DNA from: Escherichia coli
GTDB taxonomy: Bacteria > Pseudomonadota > Gammaproteobacteria > Enterobacterales > Enterobacteriaceae
Assembly (NCBI RefSeq): GCF_044647545.1
Contig: NZ_CP172818.1
Length of the DNA stretch: 64,000 nucleotides
Strand: one strand, 5' to 3'
In this document: piece by piece, positions 18,236 to 60,204 of the stretch
Layout of the letters: each line of letters begins with the position of its first letter
Numbering within the stretch: the stretch's first letter is position 1
Notes under the pieces: generated by a model
Databases searched by the model: none
What the model saw: the letters and a program-made list of their open reading frames with translations, nothing else
What the model was told of the DNA's origin: nothing
Translations under genes and position numbers: made by a program

Positions 18236-18278
18236 CTATTAAAATTAAGTTCGTACGTCTGTAAAAAAGGATTTTACG

Positions 18279-21200
18279 ATGAGCGGAAAACCGGCGGCGC
18301 GTCAGGGCGACATGACGCAGTATGGCGGTAGCATTGTTCAGGGTTCTGCCGGGGTGCGTATTGGTGCCCCCACCGGCGTGGCCTGTTCAGTGTGCCCCGG
18401 CGGGGTGACGTCCGGTCATCCGGTCAATCCGCTGCTGGGTGCAAAGGTCCTTCCCGGCGAAACCGACCTTGCCCTGCCCGCCCCGCTGCCGTTCATCCTC
18501 TCCCGCACCTACAGCAGTTACCGGACAAAAACGTCCGCGCCGGTGGGGAGCCTCGGCCCCGGCTGGAAAATGCCTGCGGATATCCGCTTACAGCTGCGCG
18601 ATAACACACTGATACTCAGTGATAACGGCGGCAGAAGCCTGTATTTTGAGCACCTGTTTCCCGGTGAGGACGGTTACAGCCGCAGCGAGTCACTCTGGCT
18701 GGTGCGCGGCGGCGTGGCGAAACTGGATGAAGGTCACCGGCTGGCCGCACTCTGGCAGGCGCTGCCGGAAGAGCTTCGCCTGAGTCCGCATCGTTATCTG
18801 GCGACGAACAGTCCACAGGGGCCGTGGTGGGTACTCGGCTGGTGTGAGCGGGTGCCGGAGGCGGATGAGGTGCTGCCTGCGCCGCTGCCGCCGTACCGGG
18901 TACTGACCGGGCTGGTGGACCGCTTCGGGCGCACACAGACGCTCCACCGCGAAGCCGCCGGTGAATTCAGCGGCGAAATCACCGGCGTGACGGATGGTGC
19001 CGGGCGTCACTTCCGGCTGGTACTGACCACGCAGGCGCTGCGGGCAGAAGAGGCCCGGCAGCAGGCCATTTCCGGCGGGACGGAACCGTCCGCTTTTCCT
19101 GATACCCTGCCGGGTTACACCGAATATGGCCGGGACAACGGTATCCGCCTGTCCGCCGTGTGGCTGACGCACGACCCGGAATATCCGGAGAATTTACCTG
19201 CCGCGCCGCTGGTGCGCTATGGCTGGACGCCACGCGGCGAACTGGCGGTGGTGTATGACCGCAGCAATACACAGGTGCGCAGCTTTACTTACGATGATAA
19301 ATACCGGGGCCGGATGGTGGCGCACCGTCACACGGGCCGGCCGGAAATCCGTTACCGTTACGACAGTGACGGGCGGGTGACAGAACAGCTAAACCCGGCA
19401 GGCTTAAGCTACACCTATCTGTTATGAGCAAAACCGCATCACCATCACCGACAGCCTGAACCGCCGTGAAGTCCTGCATACGCAGGCGAAGGCGGCCTGA
19501 AGCGGGTGGTGAAAAAGGAACACGCGGACGGCAGCGTCACGCAGAGTCAGTTTGACGCGGTGGGCAGGCTTAAGACACAGACGGATGCCGCAGGCCGGAC
19601 AACAGAATACAGCCCGGATGTGGTGACGGGCCTCATCACGCGCATCACCACGCCGGATGGCAGGGCATCGGCGTTTTACTATAACCACCACAGCCAGTTA
19701 ACGTCAGCCACCGGGCCTGACGGGCTGGAAATACGCCGGGAATATGATGAATCCGGCCGTCTGATTCAGGAAACCGCCCCTGACGGCGATATCACCCGCT
19801 ACCGTTATGATAATCCACACAGTGACTTCCCCTGCGCAACGGAAGATGCCACCGGCAGCCGGAAAACCATGACGTGGAGCCGTTACGGTCAGTTGCTGAG
19901 CTTCACCGACTGTTCCGGCTACCAGACCCGTTATGACCATGACCGCTTCGGGCAGATGACGGCGGTGCACCGCGAGGAAGGCCTGAGCCAGTGCCGCGCA
20001 TACGACAGCCGTGGACAGTTAATTGCCGTGAAAGACACGCAGGGCCATGAAACGCGGTATGAATACAACATCGCCGGTGACCTGACCGCCGTCATTGCCC
20101 CGGACGGCAGCAGAAACGGGACACAGTACGATGCGTGGGGAAAGGCCATCCGTACCACGCAGGGCGGGCTGACCCGCAGTATGGAATACGATGCTGCAGG
20201 ACGGGTCATCCGCCTGACAAACGAAAACGGCAGCCACACCACCTTCCGTTACGATGTACTCGACCGGCTGATACAGGAAACCGGCTTTGACGGCCGCACA
20301 CAGCGTTACCACCACGACCTGACCGGCAAACTTATCCGCAGCGAGGATGAGGGGCTGGTCACCCACTGGCACTATGACGAAGCAGACCGCATCACGCAGC
20401 GAACGGTGAATGGTGAAACCGCAGAACAGTGGCGGTACGACGAACGCGGCTGGCTGACACAAATCAGCCATCTCAGCGAAGGGCACCGGGTGACGGTGCA
20501 TTACGGGTATGATGAGAAAGGCCGCCTGACCGGTGAGCGCCAGACGGTGCATCATCCGCAGACGGAAGCACTGCTCTGGCAGCATGAGACCAGACATGCG
20601 TACAACGCGCAGGGGCTGGCGAACCGCTGTATACCGGACAACCTGCCCGCCGTGGAATGGCTGACTTATGGCAGTGGTTACCTGGCAGGGATGAAACTCG
20701 GCGACACACCGCTGGTGGAGTACACCCGCGACCGCCTGCACCGGGAAACGCTGCGCAGCTTCGGCCGTTATGAACTCACCACCGCTTATACCCCTGCCGG
20801 GCAGTTACAGAGCCAGCACCTGAACAGCCTGCAGTATGACCGCGATTACACCTGGAACGACAACGGCGAACTCATTCGCATCAGCAGCCCGCGCCAGACC
20901 CGGAGTTACAGCTACAGCGACTCCGGCAGGCTGACCGGCGTTCACACCACCGCAGCGAACCTGGATATCCGCATCCCGTATGCCACGGACCCGGCAGGTA
21001 ACCGCCTGCCCGACCCGGAGCTGCACCCGGACAGCACCCTCAGCATGTGGCCGGATAACCGTATCGCCCGTGACGCGCACTATCTTTACCGGTATGACCG
21101 TCACGGCAGGCTGACGGAGAAAACCGACCTCATCCCGGAAGGGGTTATCCGCACGGATGATGAGCGGACTCACCGGTACCATTACGACAGCCGGCACCGG

Positions 21201-22514
21201 CTGGTGCACTACACGCGGACACAATATGCAGAGCCGCTGGTCGAAAGTCGCTATCTTTACGACCCGCTGGGCCGCAGGGTGGCAAAACGGGTGTGGCGGC
21301 GTGAACGGGACCTGACGGGCTGGATGTCGCTGTCACGGAAACCGGAAGTGACCTGGTACGGCTGGGACGGCGACCGCCTGACCACGATACAGAACGACAG
21401 AACCCGCATCCAGACGGTTTATCAGCCGGGGAGCTTCACACCACTCATCAGGGTCGAAACCGCCACCGGTGAGCAGGCGAAAACGCAGCGCCGCAGCCTG
21501 GCGGATGCGCTTCAGCAGTCCGGCGGCGAAGACGGTGGCAGTGTGGTGTTCCCGCCGGTGCTGGTGCAGATGCTCGACCGGCTGGAAAGTGAAATCCTTA
21601 CTGACCGGGTGAGTGAGGAAAGCCGCCGCTGGCTGGCATCGTGCGGCCTGACGGTGGCGCAGATGCAAAACCAGATGGACCCGGTGTACACGCCGGCGAG
21701 AAAAATCCACCTGTACCACTGCGACCATCGCGGCCTGCCGCTGGCGCTTGTCAGCACGGAAGGGGCAACAGAATGGTGCGCAGAATACGATGAGTGGGGC
21801 AACCTGCTGAATGAAGAGAACCCGCACCAGCTGCAACAGCTTATCCGCCTGCCGGGTCAGCAGTATGATGAGGAGTCAGGCCTGTATTACAACCGCCACC
21901 GCTATTATGACCCGCTGCAGGGGCGGTATATCACTCAGGATCCGATTGGGCTGAAGGGGGGATGGAACCTGTATGGATATCAATTGAATCCGATATCAGA
22001 CATCGACCCCCTGGGTTTATCTATGTGGGAGGATGCAAAATCGGGGGCATGTACTAATGGTCTTTGCGGCACACTATCCGCTATGATAGGTCCAGATAAG
22101 TTTGATTCTATAGATAGCACCGCATATGACGCCTTAAATAAAATAAATAGCCAATCTATTTGCGAAGATAAAGAGTTCGCTGGTTTAATATGTAAGGATA
22201 ATAGTGGCAGATATTTCTCAACAGCACCTAACCGAGGGGAAAGAAAAGGATCATATCCATTCAATAGCCCTTGCCCTAATGGTACTGAGAAAGTATCAGC
22301 TTATCATACTCATGGTGCAGATAGTCATGGAGAATATTGGGACGAAATATTTTCAGGCAAAGATGAGAAAATAGTTAAAAGTAAAGATAACAATATCAAG
22401 TCATTTTATTTGGGCACGCCCAGTGGTAATTTTAAAGCAATAGATAACCACGGGAAGGAAATAACAAACGGAAAAGGATTACCTAATGTCTGCAGAGTTC
22501 ATGGTAATATGTAA
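18279..22514 (+). pseudogene. rhsB: Rhs core protein with C-terminal toxin tip (RhsB-like), interrupted by a compensated frameshift at about 19422..19484
   Basis: Two same-frame ORFs (18279..19427, 19506..22514) with YD-repeat content, PxxxxDPxGL core end at about 21945..22020 and an AT-rich tip; two in-frame TGA codons between them. Confidence 0.85.
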
Positions 22515-22869
22515 AAAAATATTTTTTAGGAACTGTGTCATTGTATCTTTGTTTGTTTTTACATACAACACATGGGCGCAGTGTAATAATAATATTAAAA
22601 TAATGCGCAAGTATGAAAGTGAGGGTAAATATACCGTTAGAAATTTGGTTAAAAATAAAGCTATAGCATTGGAATTAGCTGAGATATATGTTAAGAATCG
22701 TTATGGGCAGGATGCCGCAGAAGAAGAAAAACCATATAAAATCACTGAGTTAACAACAAGTTGGGTTGTTGAAGGCACCATTCACTCAGACCAAATTGCT
22801 GGTGGGGTTTTTATTATAGAAATAGGCAAAAATGATGGGGTAATTCTGAATTTTGGCCACGGAAAATAA
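22486..22869 (+). CDS. yhhH: Putative Rhs immunity protein YhhH
   Basis: 127 aa AT-rich ORF overlapping the rhs stop; alternative start at 22501. Confidence 0.7.
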
Positions 22870-22973
22870 GTATGTAAGGATAATCAAACATCGTGTGCGC
22901 TGATGGCAGAGTAGGTGGAGGACTCCAGACAGTCAAACGATAAAAAAAGATAGCCTTTATGGAGGCTCCTGCA

Positions 22974-23357
22974 ATGTCAAATACATACCAGAAAAGAAAG
23001 GCAAGTAAAGAGTATGGTTTATATAATCAATGTAAGAAACTAAATGATGATGAATTATTTCGCTTACTTGATGATCACAATTCCTTGAAAAGGATTTCAT
23101 CTGCCAGAGTATTACAGTTAAGAGGTGGGCAAGACGCTGTTAGATTGGTAATTGAGTTCTGCTCTGATAAAAATTATATCCGTAGAGATATCGGAGCATT
23201 TATACTCGGGCAAATAAAAATTTGCAAAAAATGCGAAGATAATGTGTTTAATATTTTGAACAATATGGCATTGAATGATAAGAGCGCTTGCGTTCGAGCT
23301 ACGGCAATCGAGTCAACGGCCAGGGAAAGATCATCAAAAGTACACTTTTTGTACTAA
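22974..23357 (+). CDS. Hypothetical protein, possibly an orphan Rhs-associated immunity protein (helical-repeat-like)
   Basis: ORF 22959..23357; likely start 22974 after GGAGG; AT-rich, between yhhH and H-repeat transposase. Confidence 0.4.
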   Translation: MSNTYQKRKASKEYGLYNQCKKLNDDELFRLLDDHNSLKRISSARVLQLRGGQDAVRLVIEFCSDKNYIRRDIGAFILGQIKICKKCEDNVFNILNNMALNDKSACVRATAIESTARERSSKVHFLY

Positions 23358-23464
23358 ATAATTCGCATTTTATGTTTAAAAATTGAGATATTCCTCATTA
23401 CCTGAAGCTGTTTTTTATTGCTTATACATGATCAAATACTCCTTACATAATTAAGGAGAACAAA

Positions 23465-46815: not shown

Positions 46816-46877
46816 TATATTCAGGTTATAAAACCAGCATGTCCTTGCAATAGTTTCAGTATGGTATTAGCATTGAT

Positions 46878-46964
46878 GCGTTAGATGATGGCATTCTCAC
46901 TCCAGCCAGAGCCACCAACTCAGGGCTGGAAAGTAAAAAAACCGACGCAAAGTCGGTTTTTTTA
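46878..46964 (+). ncRNA. agrA: AgrA-like small RNA (first tandem copy), antisense to the dinQ leader
   Basis: Repeat unit ending in CCGACgcaaaGTCGG + T7 terminator; near-identical to plus-strand 46685..46715. Confidence 0.6.
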
Positions 46965-47109
46965 CATCCGGATTCGGACAAGGCTTAATATGACGATGAC
47001 CCAGTGAAAGTATATAAATCGTCACTGCGATATATACCGAAGTGCCCCCTCCGCCAGCTGAAGAAATCGCTAATTCTTGCAATGTTAGCCACTGGCTAAT
47101 AGTATTGAA

Positions 47110-47195
47110 CCGTTAGATAAGAGCTCTCTCACTCCAGCCAGAGCCACCAACTCAGGGCTGGAAAGTAAAAAACCGACGCAAAGTCGGTTTTTTTA
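47110..47195 (+). ncRNA. agrB: AgrB-like small RNA (second tandem copy)
   Basis: Second copy of the same unit with identical terminator hairpin (47173..47194). Confidence 0.6.
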
Positions 47196-47344
47196 CGTCC
47201 TGATTCAGGTCTTTTCCAATAAATACCCAACTCTTAACTCACATCTATTACCTTCCTCTGCACATACGCATTCGTTAAACCATATATGTTTTTGACTTAT
47301 CCGCTTCGAAGAGAGACACTAAGTGCAACAATCAGGAGCGCAAT

Positions 47345-49635: not shown

Positions 49636-50653
49636 TCAAAATTTTGATGCTATTTACACAGTATGCCGCGTACAAACAAACCAAAAAACAAAACCCCGAG
49701 AAAAAACAAAAAACAAAAAAAAAAAAAAAAATTCCAATTAAGCTTCACAGACAAATTTACTAAAAACGAATAACCAATAGAAGAGAAGCAATGCTTAGTT
49801 AATCAGCCATTCAGAAACCCCCACTTAACCAATACCAAACTTAATATTAACCCATAAAAAACACCACCAAAACTCAACATTTAAAGATGTACTGCCATAT
49901 CTTTTTAGGGCATAATATACTCTTTTATTTATCTTTATTCCCTCAGATGATTCCCTCATCACAAATACCCCTCCCACCCATACGCCGTGTTTATCCCTAT
50001 ATACCCAACATTATCCCTCTCATCTGTTTGATACAAAAGAATTCTACATTAACATTAACCACCCCAACCACGAATGATATTACTTAAATCAATCAAAACC
50101 GATGATATTCATAGTTACTATACTATCTACTATTACTCAAAGCTATTTTAAAAACCACATAAACTATAAATATATCCTTATCCTCTGAAAAACATAAAGA
50201 TACCTTAAAAAAACAAATAATTAACACTTTATAATTTATGACGGACTCATAATCATCAACGACAATCACCACCAATCATTTCCAATTTTACAAACAATCT
50301 CTTCTCATATCATCCTTTAAACACTTTTTTAAACAAAAAAACACACTTTAACCTGGCTCATTATTACACATCTAAAACATCACAAAAATATCACTTCACA
50401 CACTATCGGAGAACATCATAACTTCTTAAAATGAGCGCTTTTTGATAGTTGTTAACGTTTTCCTTTACGATACTATCACTGCCCTTTTTTTATACACAAA
50501 TATTACCTGGTGGAAATGAAAGGGAAGTTAAAGGTAATTATATCAGGAAGATATGACGCATTGTGTTTATTTCCGCGTAGAAGAAAATCCATTCCTGCTC
50601 TAATTCTCCGATTTACAAAAATTTAGCGAAATAGATGAACAATAAGGAATGTT

Positions 50654-51874
50654 ATGTCAATTGACTTTACCCCAGGTATGATAAATACATATCACGGCGA
50701 TATTTATAACCGCACAACAGATACCGACAATGCTAAAACACCAGACACACCGATGTGGCCTTGTGATAATCAGGAAGAACAGCAACCCATTAATTTTTCA
50801 TTGTCTGAAGAAGGATATAACGCTGAACAATTTGATTTAGCGCAACAACAACTCCAACAAATTAATGCGTGCCACACGAACACCACATATACAAATGCAG
50901 ACTACTCAAAAGTTGTGGCTCAACTTGTAAAACTTATTAATAACATTGAAACGATAAGTTCGACACCACTTACGCAACAGACACAATCAATACTTAATCA
51001 GATTAATAACATTAGATACGAAAAGAATAAAAACTCTGAATCTAAAATCATTGTTGTCTTTAATCCTAAGCCCAATAAGCCAATCATAACTAAAATTCTC
51101 GTAGAAGAGGGAATACCAGTAAGATTCAGTGTCCAAACCGTTTCTTCCGAAAATAAAAATTTTTCTGGGCAACGAACTGATTTACCAACTGATATAAAAG
51201 ATATTCAACGCTTGTACCAAAAAATGACAAGGTTGTATATTGAGCACAGTGAAAATGAAAACAGGATGAAAGTCTTTGCTGGAACCAACTTTATTGATTT
51301 CAATATGACAGGACAGGACCTGTCCGGGTTCGTTCTAACCTTGTCAAGGTTTTATTTCGAAGATTTACTTAATGTAAACTTCACTGACGCAAATTTTGAT
51401 ACTATTTTTTCACATAAGGAAAACCCCATCACAAATTTACATAAAGATGAACAATATGTTGACAAACAAATCAATGGTTTATTTTCAACATTATTAACCA
51501 TTAATGACAACTCTTTAAGAGCAAAAGCGGAAATTGTTTCGACAATAATAGAATTATTAGAAACCAGGGTAAACAATCTTTCATACAACGACATAATAAA
51601 ATATCAGCAAGAATTCCAAAAAGAATGTTACAAGCAAGTTAAAGATTTTACAACACCCTCTCGATACAATAGAATTAAAAAATGGGCACAAATGTCTGAA
51701 TATCAATTCGAAATATTTCAACACGATACGTTTCATCTTAAAAAAATGTCATACGCACCTTATTTAAAGAGATCGCTACCTGATGAAAAAACTATAAATT
51801 ATGGGGTGGAAATAGAAACACCAACTGGCAAAAGAATTCGCTTATCAAATCATTACCAGAATATAATCCCATAA
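50654..51874 (+). CDS. yhiS: Uncharacterized protein YhiS-like with pentapeptide-repeat segment (uninterrupted)
   Basis: 406 aa AT-rich ORF; no IS element inside. Confidence 0.75.
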
Positions 51875-52838: not shown

Positions 52839-53369
52839 ATGTTTCTTATAATTACCAGGGATACGATGTTCTTCACTGCGATGAAAAACATTCTGAGTAA
52901 AGGTAATGTCGTTCATATACAGAACGAAGAAGAGATCGACGTAATGTTGCATCAGCATGCCTTCGTCATTATTGATACATTAATGAATAATGTATTTCAT
53001 TCTAATTTGCTCACTCAAATTGAACGATTAAAACCTGTCCATGTGATTATTTTCTCTCCCTTTAATATTAAACGCTGCCTGGGGAAAGTACCGGTGACCT
53101 TTGTTCCGCGAACTATCACCATCATCGACTTTGTCGCACTCATCAATGGCAGTTACTGCTCTGTGCCTGAAGCGGATGTGTCCCTTTCGCGCAAGCAGCA
53201 TCAGGTTCTGAGCTGCATTGCGAATCAAATGACAACGGAAGATATTCTGGAGAAACTGAAAATATCGCTAAAAACGTTCTACTGCCATAAACACAATATC
53301 ATGATGATCCTCAATCTTAAGCGGATCAATGAGTTGGTACGCCATCAGCATATTGATTATCTGGTGTGA
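52839..53369 (+). CDS. dctR: LuxR-family transcriptional regulator DctR (YhiF)
   Basis: 176 aa with C-terminal LuxR-type HTH. Confidence 0.9.
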   Translation: MFLIITRDTMFFTAMKNILSKGNVVHIQNEEEIDVMLHQHAFVIIDTLMNNVFHSNLLTQIERLKPVHVIIFSPFNIKRCLGKVPVTFVPRTITIIDFVALINGSYCSVPEADVSLSRKQHQVLSCIANQMTTEDILEKLKISLKTFYCHKHNIMMILNLKRINELVRHQHIDYLV

Positions 53370-53399
53370 ATATTCAGGGTACTGGTAACGGTATCCGGG

Positions 53400-55092
53400 T
53401 TAATGTGTGCGATATGTCCCAGTATCGGTGTCTTTGCCGCGGGTACGGTTATAGGCCACATCAAGGCTAAACAGATCAGTGGTATATTTCGTCATTACAT
53501 CCCAGCCCCAGATTTTGGCGTTCGGGACGTTATACGACATAGTTGTCGCCGCCGCGAAATCGACGGTCGTGGAGATGTAATCCTTCGCTTTGGTATCAAA
53601 GTAGCTGGCTTTAAATTCCAGAGCATCATTGGACAACATCAGGTCATCAAAACGCAGCCCAAAACCGTACTCCTGAGTTTTTCGTTAGTTTCCGGACGTG
53701 CAGCGTGGCACCCAATAGTTGGTATAGAAGCGACCAATCGAGAAGTGCTTAGAATCGTTATACATTTCGCCCATCGTCGGGGCGCGGAATACCTGGGCAT
53801 ATGAGCCAAATAACATCAGCCAGTTGGTCGGGTTGATAGTCATCCCCGCACGAGATGACCATTTGTCAGCATCAACATCTTTGTAGCCGTCGCTGCTACC
53901 GCGATAACTGTCATAGCGGGTTCCGCCAAGCAGAGTAATCGGCAGATCGCGTAAGGTGATCTCATCCTGTAGCCAGCCGGAGCTAAAATAGATTTTGCTT
54001 GCGGGAAGCCCGTCGTCGCGCCGCCCGGATGTTGTTCCTGACGATAATACTCACCGCCATATGTCAGTAAGTGAGAAGCGAAACTGTCGGCAAATAAGTC
54101 CGGAACGGTTCTCCAGCCTGGCTCCTTTTGTTATCTGTTCACGATACTCGCCGGAACTCCCCGTGTTTTGCGCATTAATACGGACTTCCGACCAGTAAAT
54201 TTTTGCATCTGCATTTAACCAGTCGTTGCCCTGTGGGGCGAGTTTATAAGAAAGCTGCGCATCGCGTTGAATTGTTGAACGATCAACCATCGGGTTGCTG
54301 CTATCGAGAAACTGCTCAACAGTCTGCGGATTTTTTGGTTCACGCGCGTCGTTGTTGTAGTAACGCACTAAACCGCTCAGAGACTGGGCTGAAATCAATT
54401 TGCCAGGTCCCTTTCGCCAGCATGTTATTAATGGACTCGTCATTCGGCGCGGTTTCACCATTGCTCTGGCGTAAATCACCCCGATCGCGACTGGACCAGG
54501 CCACAATACCATCCAGATTTTCAGTTCGCCCAAACGCGCTCGCGCCTAATCCCAGGCTATGGTCCCCCGTGCCGCCAGTACCAAAGACACGAAAACCACT
54601 GCTTTGTCCTTCCTGCAATAAATCTTTTGCATCGACCGTATCGTAGGAGATCACTCCACCCAGCGCGCCACTGCCATACAGTAATGCTGAAGGTCCGCGA
54701 ACGATCTCAACACGCTTGATCAGCGCCGGATCGAGAAAAGTGCCATTCAGGTGTCCGGTATCCGTTCCCTGGCGAACACCATCGACAAGAACCAGCACGC
54801 CGCGATGATCATAGCCACGCATATTTACATCCTGACCGTTGGTTCGTCCGGTACCATCAAGAGTAATTCCAGGAACATGACGCAGCAAATCAGTGGCTGG
54901 AGTCGCCGTTTGATTTTCAGGAGCGGAAGTGTCGATAACGCTGACCATCATAGGCGCTTCGAAGGAACTACGTGCATTCCCGGTTGCCGTAACGGTCATG
55001 GTTTCAGTAGCAAAAGCAAATGTTGGCAAGGTGGCAGAAACAGCCAAAGCCAACAAACTCAAACGCAACGAGGTAAATTGCGGACGTGACAT
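53400..55092 (-). pseudogene. chuA: TonB-dependent heme receptor ChuA/ShuA-like, frameshifted and 3'-truncated
   Basis: N-terminal ORF 54340..55092 has signal peptide, TonB box ETMTVTA and plug domain; continues in other frames (54051..54533, 53400..53639); about 1.7 kb remains of an expected ~2 kb. Confidence 0.8.
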
Positions 55093-55375
55093 AGCGATTC
55101 TCCATGAGGAAAATAAAATGCTGGCTGCCTGGTTAATTGCAGTGCTGGCGAAAAATAAATTTATTTACAATTCAAATGATTAGATATCACCACGGGAAGC
55201 TATTAGCGTATATATCCCGTAAAATTGCCGAATATTTCTGATAATTCAGCAAAAGCACGCCCTCTTTGTCAGGCAAAGTAGTACGCCACGTCTGAAGTGA
55301 AGAGTGCTGTGCGTTTCCCTTACAAAAGATATGATTTTGTTATCCATGATGTCATATTTTGTTAAACTCAAACGT

Positions 55376-55394
55376 GATAATGAGAATTATTATC
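55376..55394. promoter_or_regulatory. Fur-box-like operator in the chuA-chuT divergent region
   Basis: GATAATGAGAATTATTATC versus consensus GATAATGATAATCATTATC (2 mismatches). Confidence 0.6.
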
Positions 55395-55722
55395 GATCAA
55401 TTTTTTATGATCAAGCTTTTTTAACCGCCATTAACACAATAAACAGGGATTATGGAATCTTATCCAGCATCAGAAAACCATCCTGTGTTTATGGCTATCC
55501 CCCACAACCTCATCACAAAACGTTGTCGTTAACAGTGATAATTTTCTCTTCTCTTTGCTCTGCAAGCCGCGATATCTCCGGGTTCTCAGCTTTTTCCCGC
55601 GCTGAAATTTAATCGGTAACAAGAACGTTCACGACGAAGCATCTTGATAAAAATCAAAAATAAATACGCTTGTAACGCCGTGCGTATTGAATCGACGGTT
55701 GTATTTCATATATAACTCAAAT

Positions 55723-55741
55723 GATAATCATGATCATTCTC
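55723..55741. promoter_or_regulatory. Fur-box-like operator upstream of the chuT remnant
   Basis: GATAATCATGATCATTCTC, close to the Fur consensus. Confidence 0.55.
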
Positions 55742-55845
55742 AATTTGATAAGGGTTCTCATATTATGCCAAGGATCATCACCAGGCCGTTTCTTTTTTCC
55801 CCACTGACGTTATGTATTTCAGCCGTGGCCTCTGCCGCGAAGACC

Positions 55846-56674
55846 ATGGTAAAACGAAAAAAATTGTTTACGGCATTACTGGCTCTTAGCTGGACTTTTA
55901 GCGTAACGGCTGCGAACGTATCGTGGTCGCAGAGATCGCTGACGGAGCTAATCTACGCGATGGGCGCTGGCAAACGCGTGGTTGGTGTCGATGAAACGAC
56001 ATCTTATCCACCAGAAACCGCCAGACTGCCGCATATTGGTTACTGGAAACAACTCAGCAGCGAAGGCATTTTGTCACTTCGCCCGGATAGCGTAATTACC
56101 TGGCAGGATGCAGGACCGCAAATTGTGCTCGAACCGACTGCGGCGCAAGAGTCAACGTCGTCACTCTGCCGCATATTTCCGCCACCCTTGAGCAGATGTA
56201 CGCCAACATTCGCCAACTGGCAAAAACGTTACAGGTTCCTGAACAAGGCGAGGCGCTGGTGACACAATCAACCAACGCCTGGAGCGAGTACAGCAAAACG
56301 TGGCGGCCAAAAAAGCCCCGGTTAAAGCCATGTTTATTCTCTCCGCAGGCGGAAGTGCGCCACAGGTTGCCGGTAAAGGCAGCGTCGCGGACGCCATTCT
56401 TTCGCTTGCCGGAGCAGAAAACGTCGCTACCCACCAGCAGTACAAAAGCTACAGCGCGGAATCGCTGATTGCGGCTAACCCTGAAGTGATTGTCGTCACC
56501 TCACAAATGGTCGATGGCGATATTAATCGGCTACGTTCTATTGCCGGAATTACCCACACTGCCGCATGGAAAAACCAGCGCATTATCACCGTTGATCAAA
56601 ACCTGATTCTGGGAATGGGTCCGCGTATTGCTGATGTCGTTGAGTCTTTACACCAGCAGCTTTGGCCGCAATAA
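55846..56674 (+). pseudogene. chuT: Periplasmic heme-binding protein ChuT-like, frameshifted
   Basis: Three frame segments (55687..56262, 56196..56468, 56300..56674) jointly encode a signal peptide and a class III periplasmic binding protein. Confidence 0.75.
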
Positions 56675-56693
56675 ATGGATTTAGATCAGACGA

Positions 56694-58027
56694 ATGAACA
56701 CAAATAACACCCTGGATCTCACGCCACATTTTGCTTTAGACGGTGATGCGCCATTTAAAGACAGGCGCGCCATGATGCGTTCGTGGGGCCATTCCAGTTG
56801 CCAAAGAGCAACTGACACAGACCTGGCAAGAGATGCTCAATCAAACGGTATCACCACGTAAGCGACTGGTTTATCTACACATTCCTTTTTGTGCGACACA
56901 CTGCACGTTTTGTGGTTTTTATCAGAACCGTTTTAATGACGATGCGTGTGCTCATTATACCGACGCCCTGATTCGTGAAATAGAAATGGAAGCAGACAGC
57001 GTATTGCATCAGTCTGCCCCATCCACGCGGTCTATTTCGGTGGCGGTACGCCTTCCGCGCTTTCAGCACACGATTTCGCCAGAATCATCACCACATTACG
57101 AGAAAAGCTGCCACTGGCCCCTGATTGTGAAATCACTATTGAAGGCCGGGTACTGAATTTTGACGCTGAGCGAATCGATGCTTGCCTTGATGCTGGAGCA
57201 AACCGCTTCTCAATTGGTATTCAGTCGTTTAACAGCAAAATCCGCAAGAAAATGGCCCGCACCTCGGATGGCCCAACCGCTATTGCGTTTATGGAAAGCC
57301 TGGTCAAACAACTGATGCAGCGGTGGTCTGTGACCTGCTGTTTGGTCTGCCGGGTCAGGATGCGCAAACCTGGGGAGAAGATCTCGCTGTACCACGATAT
57401 CGGTCTCAACGGCGTCAATTCTCTATGCGCTCAATGTTAGCCCAATACACCGCTGGGCAAAGCCGTGGAAAATCGGCATACTACCGTGCCCTCTCCGGCA
57501 GAACGTCGCGATCTTTACCTGCAAGGGTGTGATTTTATGGACGATGCCGGTTGGCGCTGCATCAGTAACAGCCACTGGGGCCGTACCACACGCGAACGCG
57601 ATCTCTATAACCTGCTGATTAAACAAGGTGCCGATTGCTGGCCTTTGGTTCCGGAGCCGGCGGTTCGATTAATGGTTACTCCTGGATGAACGAACGCAAT
57701 CTTCAGACCTGGCATGAATCCGTCGCGGCAGGCAAAAAAACCAGCTGCATGATGATCATGCGTAACGCCGAACGTAATGCGCAATGGCGTCATACCTTGC
57801 AGTCAGGTGTTGAAACAGCGCGCGTACCGCTGGATGAACTTACACCACATGCCGAAAAACTCGCGCCGTTACTGGCTCAATGGCACCAAAAAGGCTTAAG
57901 TCGCGATGCTTCAACTTGCCTGCGGCTGACTAATGAAGGTCGTTTCTGGGCAAGCAATATTTTGCAGTCTCTTAATGAACTAATTCAGGTACTTAATGCG
58001 CCAGCGATTGTGCGTGAAAAACCATAA
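56694..58027 (+). pseudogene. chuW: Radical-SAM heme-degrading enzyme ChuW/HemN-like, multiply frameshifted
   Basis: Fragments 56833..57156 (CxxxCxxC as CATHCTFC), 57252..57689, 57635..58027 in different frames. Confidence 0.7.
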
Positions 58028-58039
58028 CAGGAGTGATTT

Positions 58040-58534
58040 ATGAGCCATGTCTCGTTGCAGAATTTTGAAAACGGAGCCGGACGGTACGCTGGAGGTGGTA
58101 GCCGAACAATACAACACCACACTGCTGGAAGTAGTGAAAGATCTGCCCTCCTCTACCATAGTGTCAGGCGATAAATTCGATACTGTCTGGGATACCGTCT
58201 GCGAATGGGGCAACGTCACCACGTTAGTACATACTGCCGATGTAATCCTCGAATTTAGCGGCGAATTCTGCCTTCGGGTTTCCACCGCCACGGCTATTTC
58301 AACCTACGCGGAAAGCACGGCATGTCCGGGCATATGAAAGCAGAAAACTGCACACATATTGCCTTGATCGAACGTAAATTTATGGGCATGGACACCGCCT
58401 CTATTCTCTTTTTCAATAAGGAAGGCAGCGCCATGCTGAAAATCTTCCTCGGCAGGGATGACCATCGTCAGCTCCTGAGCGAACAAGTCAGCGCCTTCCA
58501 TGCTCTGGCAGCATCGTTAAAGGAACACGCCTGA
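58040..58534 (+). pseudogene. chuX: ChuX-like heme utilization protein, frameshifted
   Basis: ATG 58040 (MSHVSLQ), then ORFs 58047..58337 and 58322..58534 in shifted frames. Confidence 0.65.
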
Positions 58535-59162
58535 TGACGCCGTGGCTACTCTTTTGGCGCAGGCGGAAAAGGTGTGGGTGCCAGAACGCTTGAACTGGCG
58601 CTGGCAGCAACGTCCAGTGGCGAGTACTATCGTTCGTCATGCCGATGCCGCCACGAAACTGGCGCAACAAGGCGTACAGGTTTTTACAGGCGACGCCTGT
58701 GATGCCAGCGTAACCTGACGGATGCTTGCCACGCAGCTCGGCCCGGATGCGCTTGTGGTTCAACAATGGGCGGAGCTCAGGATTATCTGGCGCACGAACA
58801 GTGATTGATGAGGCCGAAAAGGCCGGCATCAGTCGCATGATTCTGGTGACCTCTTTGGGATGCGGCGATAGCTGGCCATTTTTATCGGAGCGAGCAAAGG
58901 CTGCGTTTGGTCAGGCGGTACGGGAAAAAACGCTGGCGGAAAGCTGGTTGCAAACCAGCCAGCTTGATTACGCCATTCTCCGCCCTGGCGGTCTGCTGGA
59001 TGCGGGCGGCAACAGGGCAAAGCACAACGGATACAAAATCAGGAGTGTCATGGTTTTGTTCACCGTGCCGATGTCGCCGCACATATCCATGAACTGGCAA
59101 ATGCGCCAGCACTTAACCAGCAGGTCTACAGTCTGATTGAACCGGACCTGAAACCGGCGTGA
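58535..59162 (+). pseudogene. chuY: ChuY-like NAD(P)-binding protein, frameshifted
   Basis: Rossmann-like FGAGGKGVGARTLELALAA visible only in a shifted frame; C-terminal fragment ORF 58726..59136. Confidence 0.6.
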
Positions 59163-59210
59163 TACCCCGGCGCGGCATGTCCGCGCCGTAATGTCGTAAC
59201 GGAGTTTTGC

Positions 59211-60204
59211 GTGCTCAAGGATTCACTCTCTTCCGCCAGGGTCTACTGGGGCTATCACTATTATTGCTAGCTCTGGTGCTGTTCGGTGCCAGTCAGGGGA
59301 GCGTAAAGAATCAGTTTTGATGCCCTTTTTGATGAGGAATACCGCCATATCTGGCTCAATATTCGTCTACCACGGGTTTTGCTGGCGGTGCTGGTAGGTG
59401 CAGCGTTGGCAACCGCAGGGGTAATTATGCAGGGGCTTTTTCGCAACCCAATGGCTGACCCTGGATTACTTGGCGTCAGTAGCGGTTCTGCATTAATGGT
59501 TGGCGTTGCTATTGTGCTGCCCTTCTCCTTCCCAGTGGTGCTGGTGCTCTATGAGCAAATGGTGTTTGCCATTGCCGGAAGTTTAGTGGTCTGCACCATC
59601 ATTTTTCTCATCACGCAGCGCCATCGCGATGGCAGCATGATGCAATTATTACTCGCCGGTATCGCCATCAATGCCCTGTGCGGCGCAGCGATCGGCATCC
59701 TGAGCTATATCGGCGATGAGCAGCAGCTACGACAACTCACATTGTGGATGATGGGCAATCTTGGACAGGCGCAATGGCCGACGTTATTGGTTGCCAGTTC
59801 ATTCATCCTACCGGCCATTATCGCAACAACTTGTCTCGCCGGAACGCTGAATTTACTGCAGCTCGGTGATGAAGAAGCCCATTACCTCGGCGTGAACGTT
59901 AAGCGTAAACGCCAGCAATTACTGTTAGTGAGCTCACTGCTCGTTGGTGCCGCCGTATCGGTAAGCGGCATTATCGGCTTTATTGGCCTGGTGATCCCGC
60001 ATCTGATTCGCATGACTACCGGAGCAAATCACCGCTGGCTAATCCCTTGCTCCGCCCTCGCCGGAGCCTGTTTATTGCTGATGGCAGACACGCTTGCCCG
60101 CACGCTGGTACAGCCAGCAGAAATGCCCGTGGGATTATTAACCAGCCTGCTTGGTGGTCCTTATTTTATGTGGTTGATTCTGCGCAACCCGGAGGATCAC
60201 ATGA
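59211..60204 (+). pseudogene. chuU: Heme ABC transporter permease ChuU-like (FecCD family), frameshifted at N-terminus and fused in frame to downstream ATPase fragment
   Basis: ORF 59379..60386 carries FecCD-like TM segments and reads through into the ATPase N-terminus. Confidence 0.7.

Follow-up and report, generated by a model that had tools for sequence, protein, structure and literature searches.

The chu control region and the question it raises

In the window, by which is meant the whole 64-kb stretch of Escherichia coli DNA that was analysed, two matches to the Fur consensus lie between the divergently oriented haem-uptake genes chuA and chuT, both of which are broken as written. The question is whether these matches are operators that have outlived their genes, and now send iron-regulated transcripts towards dctR and yhiD or titrate Fur, or whether they belong to the ordinary control region of a locus whose decay is itself in doubt. 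The region is very probably the standard divergent haem-uptake control region, with the two boxes being the already known Fur operators of PchuA and PchuT. By collinearity with the annotated FDAARGOS_497 sequence, the gene order around it is arsRBC, a yhiS-like gene, slp, dctR, the chu locus, yhiD, hdeBA, and hdeD; dctR lies at 52839–53369 and yhiD at 61020–61679.

Two Fur boxes

The Fur sites were scored with the 19-bp consensus GATAATGATAATCATTATC and with 7-1-7 models, and the scores were tested against shuffled sequences. Box 1, GATAATGAGAATTATTATC at 55376–55394, agrees with the consensus in 17 of 19 positions (two mismatches), and box 2, GATAATCATGATCATTCTC at 55723–55741, in 16 of 19 (three mismatches). 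No other site in the 64-kb window lies within three mismatches of the consensus; the four matches counted (two sites on both strands) compare with a mean of 0.01 in dinucleotide shuffles of the whole window. Each box can be read as two overlapping 7-1-7 units with 1–3 mismatches of 14, and a third 19-mer with four mismatches, at 55717–55735, is offset by 6 bp from the phase of box 2 and forms with it a clustered arrangement typical of Fur sites.

55376–55394, minus strand: Fur box 1, operator of chuA (chuAS), at about −18 to +2, overlapping the −10 hexamer and the start site
55717–55741, plus strand: Fur box 2 cluster, comprising 55723–55741 (+1 to +19 of chuT) and 55717–55735

The chuA–chuT intergenic region is AT-rich (37% GC), and so are the sequences that match the Fur consensus, which speaks for coincidental matches that are not Fur sites. 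However, when the spacer alone was shuffled (n = 5000, dinucleotide-preserving), at least one site within three mismatches appeared in 0.08% of the shuffles and two sites in none; moreover, the boxes fall exactly on published start sites and on a validated Fur site, and they are kept across diverged alleles. A chance origin, ruled out by both the whole-window and the region-only shuffles, therefore has a negligible probability, and the first-pass annotation, which had placed two good Fur-consensus matches at these positions, was right to do so. The assignment draws on consensus agreement beyond chance, on the 7-1-7 units and the 6-bp phasing, on the overlap with promoters and start sites, and on orthology to a site with Fur evidence; for box 2 the orthology lies in the geometry of the shuT site and identity to the Sakai allele, and for box 1 it holds at the operon level.

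The chuT promoter, leader, and start codon

55687–55716, plus strand: chuT promoter read from the sequence, −35 TTGAAT at 55687–55692, 18-nt spacer, −10 TATAAC at 55711–55716
55723–55764, plus strand: chuT 5'UTR of 42 nt, the published shuT RNA thermometer, whose 5' half is encoded by Fur box 2

The transcription start of shuT lies 42 nt 5' of its ATG, and a 19-nt Fur site with three mismatches occupies +1 to +19 (Wei, Kouse and Murphy 2017, PMC5458455). Its dependence on Fur and iron was demonstrated by reporter fusions, truncation, and EMSA, a thermometer mutant was made at U +15/+16, and the 62-nt promoter fragment used implies a −35 hexamer starting at −36 (PMC5458455). The window fits this geometry: 42 nt on from 55723 stands the ATG at 55765, U is found at +15/+16, and TTGAAT starts at −36. 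Box 2 appears to be the validated shuT/chuT Fur site, an identity resting on geometry and on the Sakai allele rather than on the S. dysenteriae sequence itself. There is no lesion in the chuT promoter in comparison with functional alleles, while the 5'UTR is identical to that of FDAARGOS_497 and differs from UTI89 in two positions and from Sakai in one; the predicted fold of the leader is weak (−5.3 kcal/mol).

The start of chuT at ATG 55765 agrees with the PGAP annotation and with the published 42-nt shuT 5'UTR. The in-frame ATG at 55848, which precedes the signal-peptide-like MVKRKKLF, reads GCA in O157 Sakai. It had earlier been taken for the chuT start, giving a control region of 55093–55845; with the start at 55765 this span shrinks to 55093–55764, and the corrected boundary is of practical value.

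The chuA promoter, leader, and RNA thermometer

55386–55414, minus strand: predicted sigma-70 chuA promoter, −35 TTGATC at 55414–55409, 17-nt spacer, −10 AATAAT at 55391–55386
55093–55377, minus strand: chuA 5'UTR, 285 nt here, 291 nt in Sakai and 292 nt in FDAARGOS_497 (alignment and coordinate mapping)
55090–55119, minus strand: FourU RNA thermometer over the chuA Shine-Dalgarno sequence and start codon, Rfam RF02597 (shuA_thermo)

The start site of Sakai chuA was mapped to 4,391,862, with a leader of 291 nt (Sy and Tree 2022, PMC9002310). In the alignment it falls on window position 55377, the second base of box 1, and a box 1 so placed lies over +1 and over the −10 hexamer of PchuA, where a repressor classically acts. 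The promoter found by scanning (9 of 12 matches) agrees in position with the published Sakai +1. Published evidence for box 1 consists of promoter and start-site mapping together with regulon-level ChIP and RNA-seq, chuAS, chuTWXYU, and hmuV being part of the direct Fur regulon of UPEC CFT073 (PMC7157518).

The chuA leader carries lesions at about +65, at +235 to +249 (a scrambled 15-nt patch), and at +268/+269, where UU is lost. Upstream of the start, lesions are found at −40, −73 to −84, −95, −124, and about −255; the A/T tract directly upstream of the −35 hexamer has a 1-nt deletion at 55416/55417. This deletion or the leader lesions could alter the strength of the promoter or the fate of the RNA. 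Even in intact strains the chuA leader is subject to Rho termination at +271 and to sRNA control (PMC9002310); the lost UU adjoins this mapped Rho stop.

The Rfam scan of the spacer found shuA_thermo and no other RNA element. The FourU hairpin AUUUUCC/GGAGAAU is intact and pairs with the Shine-Dalgarno sequence, folding at −8.5 kcal/mol (z = −2.0). Its RF02597 score of 49.3 bits lies under the gathering score of 58, as compared with 60.1 for the intact allele, the sole cause being the two U missing from the unpaired 5' U-run.

Conservation of the control region

Of 5426 complete E. coli genomes, 2236 have a match to the 753-bp span 55093–55845, in every case flanked by chuA and chuT. Both boxes are invariant in an alignment of the window with the two B2 strains FDAARGOS_497 and UTI89 and with O157 Sakai. 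Taken with 10 bp of flank on each side, box 1 is unchanged in 2161 of the 2231 complete genomes that match it and box 2 in 1877 of 2060. The region occurs in two allele classes of about 88% overall identity, and box 1 lies inside a 47-bp block of perfect identity amid the diverged leader.

As to the allele classes themselves, 1229 genomes are 95–99% identical to the window (with chuT so named by PGAP) and 1007 are 80–90% identical (named shuT by PGAP). Their divergence is concentrated in the chuA leader from +10 to +200, and the chuT-proximal 200 bp and the box 1 block are nearly invariant.

State of the chu genes

53370–55092, minus strand: chuA remnant with 15 indel events, 3' 257 nt deleted, first ORF of 250 aa
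53369–53370, no strand: deletion junction, 1394 bp lost, equal to FDAARGOS_497 L001 5881–7274 (BLAST)
55765–56674, plus strand: chuT remnant with 7 indel events, its fragments covering Peripla_BP_2 profile positions 7–68 and 133–234
56675–61006, plus strand: remnants of chuW, chuX, chuY, chuU, and chuV, every one with several small indels relative to the annotated L001

The seven retained genes, chuA, chuT, chuW, chuX, chuY, chuU, and chuV, have 3–15 indel events each, and their frames are disrupted in comparison with intact orthologues. The 250-aa chuA ORF encodes the signal peptide and Plug only (Plug being the sole domain found by Pfam), the chuT reading frame is broken from 55913 onward, and FecCD is followed by a truncated ABC_tran in one ORF, so that ChuU and ChuV are fused and truncated. 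The 1394-bp deletion takes away the dctR–chuS spacer, chuS, the GC-rich chuA–chuS hairpin (L001 7012–6993), and the 3' end of chuA, and it fuses the dctR stop codon to internal chuA sequence, leaving dctR without its native 3' spacer. The lesion-dense tract ends at a 4-bp deletion at 61006.

Neither Fur box is touched by a lesion, and the same is true of the −35 and −10 hexamers, start sites, Shine-Dalgarno sequences, and start codons. In the first-pass annotation the operators were described as surviving between pseudogenes. The boxes are indeed intact and the genes broken as written; that these are natural pseudogenes is made doubtful by the lesion spectrum described below. Nor does the presence of the boxes tell anything particular about the state of the genes. 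With 19 events per 683 bp, the intergenic region is hit at least as densely as the genes, and six lesion clusters placed at random in 672 bp would, by calculation, leave both 19-mers untouched with a probability of about 0.6. Chance thus predicts that both boxes would be missed, and their intactness is no argument that they were retained; selective retention was rejected on these grounds.

Lesion pattern: natural decay or artefact

In comparison with FDAARGOS_497, the chu island (53368–61006, 7.6 kb) has 62 substitutions and 70 indels of one or two bases, whereas about 42 kb of flanking sequence has no substitution at all. Of the 95 differing columns, 83 are private to the window, the B2 and O157 alleles agreeing with each other there, and the best match to the spacer among the 2236 genomes reaches 97.3% identity. 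The lesions fall in 48 tight clusters of locally scrambled appearance. Indels equal or outnumber substitutions, 24 of them lying outside homopolymers, and 44 of the 62 substitutions are at plus-strand purines, a bias seen to either side of the divergent promoters. Miscalling at Dam motifs was considered as a source: four A>G changes give rise to a GATC, but the total count of GATC is 32 in both sequences. The deletion junction is absent from the 5426 E. coli genomes, the GTDB representatives, and the JGI metagenomes; an exact-protein look-up gave no record of the truncated ChuA product, and a literature search for chuA pseudogenes gave no result.

A further altered tract lies outside the chu island. 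A patch of 675 bp at 49664–50338 contains no more than 42 G; its GC skew falls as low as −0.78, and a long poly-A run lies at about 49700–49732. It is collinear with, and about 70% identical to, FDAARGOS_497 sequence (L001 2044–2846, a spacer and the 3' portion of a permease gene) stripped of G, most G being deleted or replaced. The gene for an ArsR-family regulator is missing, as is the 5' portion of the permease gene. The patch has no match in the 5426 complete E. coli genomes, even with a blastn word size of 11.

Several natural origins of the chu lesions were considered. Judged from the sequences compared, ordinary vertical decay is excluded, since about 130 lesions would have to post-date a split that left zero change in the flanks; the divergence is unlike that of the flanks, it is not dominated by substitutions, and no relative carries the lesions. 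Acquisition of a diverged natural allele through recombination was rejected on account of the private columns and of the best genome standing at 97.3%, and transcription-coupled mutation because the strand bias keeps its direction across the divergent promoters. Low assembly quality in general was likewise rejected, the flanks being essentially identical and the Rhs region differing in a natural, substitution-dominated way.

The account that we consider probable, with appreciable room for doubt, is that the chu locus actually works and is under ordinary Fur control, the frameshifts and possibly the deletion being sequence errors or artificial alterations. It is favoured by the confinement of the changes to 7.6 kb next to unchanged flanks, by their privacy and tight clustering, by the excess of indels, many outside homopolymers, with a purine bias, by the second, G-stripped patch that has no counterpart in any of the genomes searched, and by the junction and truncated ChuA being unrecorded wherever they were sought. 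It has its own difficulties: the window is otherwise essentially free of errors, so that an artefact would have to be sharply local and to coincide with the borders of the island, and a 1.4-kb deletion is atypical of base-calling error. That the lesions are real and stem from an indel-rich mutation burst restricted to the chu island and the patch at 49.7–50.3 kb, in a clonal background, seems very unlikely. As the pseudogene call rests on an unnatural lesion pattern, the source sequence is to be checked before anything is built on a dead chu locus.

Expected Fur control and possible transcription into dctR and yhiD

60978–61004, minus strand: chuV/yhiD hairpin with an 11-bp stem, found in the terminator scan and also present in FDAARGOS_497

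Fe2+-Fur bound at box 1, over the −10 hexamer and about 55377, would block RNA polymerase at the chuAS promoter, and box 2, at +1 to +19, would serve as the Fur operator of the chuTWXYUV promoter while also encoding the 5' half of the thermometer. Because the operators and core promoters are identical to those of working alleles, both promoters should remain under repression by Fur and become active when iron is limiting; iron-repressible initiation should, to the extent that it can be read from the DNA, be retained in this sequence.

A truly dead locus whose operators drive iron-regulated junk antisense RNA into dctR and yhiD, or titrate Fur, is unlikely, if somewhat less so than the mutation burst. 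What speaks for it is that both promoters and their operators are intact and that the path into dctR is open, the deletion having taken out chuS and the chuA–chuS hairpin and brought the chuA remnant up against the dctR stop; the scan of the minus strand from the promoter to dctR found no terminator-like hairpin of comparable strength. If the lesions are real, the transcript from PchuA would consist of the leader, the 250-codon ORF, and an untranslated stretch of about 970 nt that continues antisense into dctR, and it is anatomically possible, by the layout of the DNA, for such transcripts to reach dctR. On the other hand, Rho terminates transcription in the chuA leader of intact strains as well (PMC9002310), and it should act more strongly on the untranslated remnant of about 970 nt, so that little may reach dctR. 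On the chuT side, the chuV/yhiD hairpin has a T-run on the yhiD strand only and none on the plus strand; it is probably the terminator of yhiD and a weak barrier to readthrough from the chuT operon, which again would suit junk transcription. Nevertheless, the convergent geometry is the same in functional strains, so readthrough into yhiD is not peculiar to this allele. The lesion statistics are also against it: nothing in them points to selection on the boxes, and the lesion spectrum makes it doubtful that the pseudogenes are real.

A cell contains thousands of copies of Fur. Set against that number, two or three sites cannot meaningfully titrate it, and the same two or three are found in every chu-positive E. 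coli (the box matches in 2161 and 1877 genomes given above), so any Fur sink would be negligible; the suggestion that the region might act as one is implausible.

Should the lesions nevertheless be real, iron starvation would lead to a 250-residue exported ChuA fragment, consisting of the signal peptide and the TonB-box/Plug part, and to an antisense-capable RNA into dctR. Once verified, they would make a modest case of regulatory DNA outliving its genes, with a possible antisense effect on the acid-fitness regulator dctR.

Other features of the window

The interval from nikR to yhhJ, which in FDAARGOS_497 contains hicAB, is occupied in the window by an Rhs region (18262–24616) comprising RhsB, yhhH, and the ISEc1/ISAs1-family transposase yhhI. 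Its Rhs core is broken into two ORFs, of 382 and 1002 aa; in comparison with the copy in O26 11368 the region has 182 mismatches and 3 gaps, and it looks natural. Between arsC and slp, in low-GC, G-poor DNA, there is an intact ORF of 406 aa (50654–51874) at the position of the FDAARGOS_497 hypothetical protein WP_022646234.1, from whose gene it differs by one substitution and an in-frame 3-bp deletion. Two direct copies of a sequence of about 115 bp, at 46862–46975 and 47093–47206, lie 3' of gor, next to the position of dinQ in FDAARGOS_497, with about 89% identity between the window and reference copies; presumably they are the agrA/agrB small-RNA repeats.

Comparison with known systems

The operators, promoters, and leaders described here have already been dissected in Shigella dysenteriae, EHEC, and UPEC, and their biological significance in this window is therefore small. 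Regulatory DNA, being a small mutational target, can outlast coding sequence, and in decaying genomes such as those of Mycobacterium leprae and Shigella pseudogenes are transcribed and promoters retained. Natural decay of that kind is rich in substitutions and shared by relatives, whereas the lesions in the window are private, indel-rich, and clustered, against a clone background that is otherwise identical.

Divergent pairs of Fur-controlled iron-uptake promoters occur elsewhere in E. coli, as in fepA–fes, fepD–entS, and fepB–entC. Like these, the chu locus has back-to-back iron-repressed operons with a Fur box at each start site. Unlike them, it does not have one shared compact region, its operators lying 328 bp apart at separate promoters, and box 2 is situated 3' of the start site. 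The divergent pair cited in work on shuT is fepD–ybdA (PMC5458455).

With the known chuA/shuA promoter and leader, which are under the control of iron, temperature, and sRNA (Kouse 2013, PMC3660397; PMC9002310), the window shares the box over −10/+1, the long leader, and the FourU hairpin, and it differs from them in three private leader lesions, an Rfam score below threshold, a truncated receptor, and the loss of chuS. The closest likeness is to the shuT/chuT Fur site of S. dysenteriae (PMC5458455), with the 19-mer of three mismatches at +1 to +19, the 42-nt leader, U at +15/+16, and the −35 hexamer from −36; over 55687–55764 the operator and promoter show no difference from that system, and the two part only downstream, where the chuT frame is broken at 55913.
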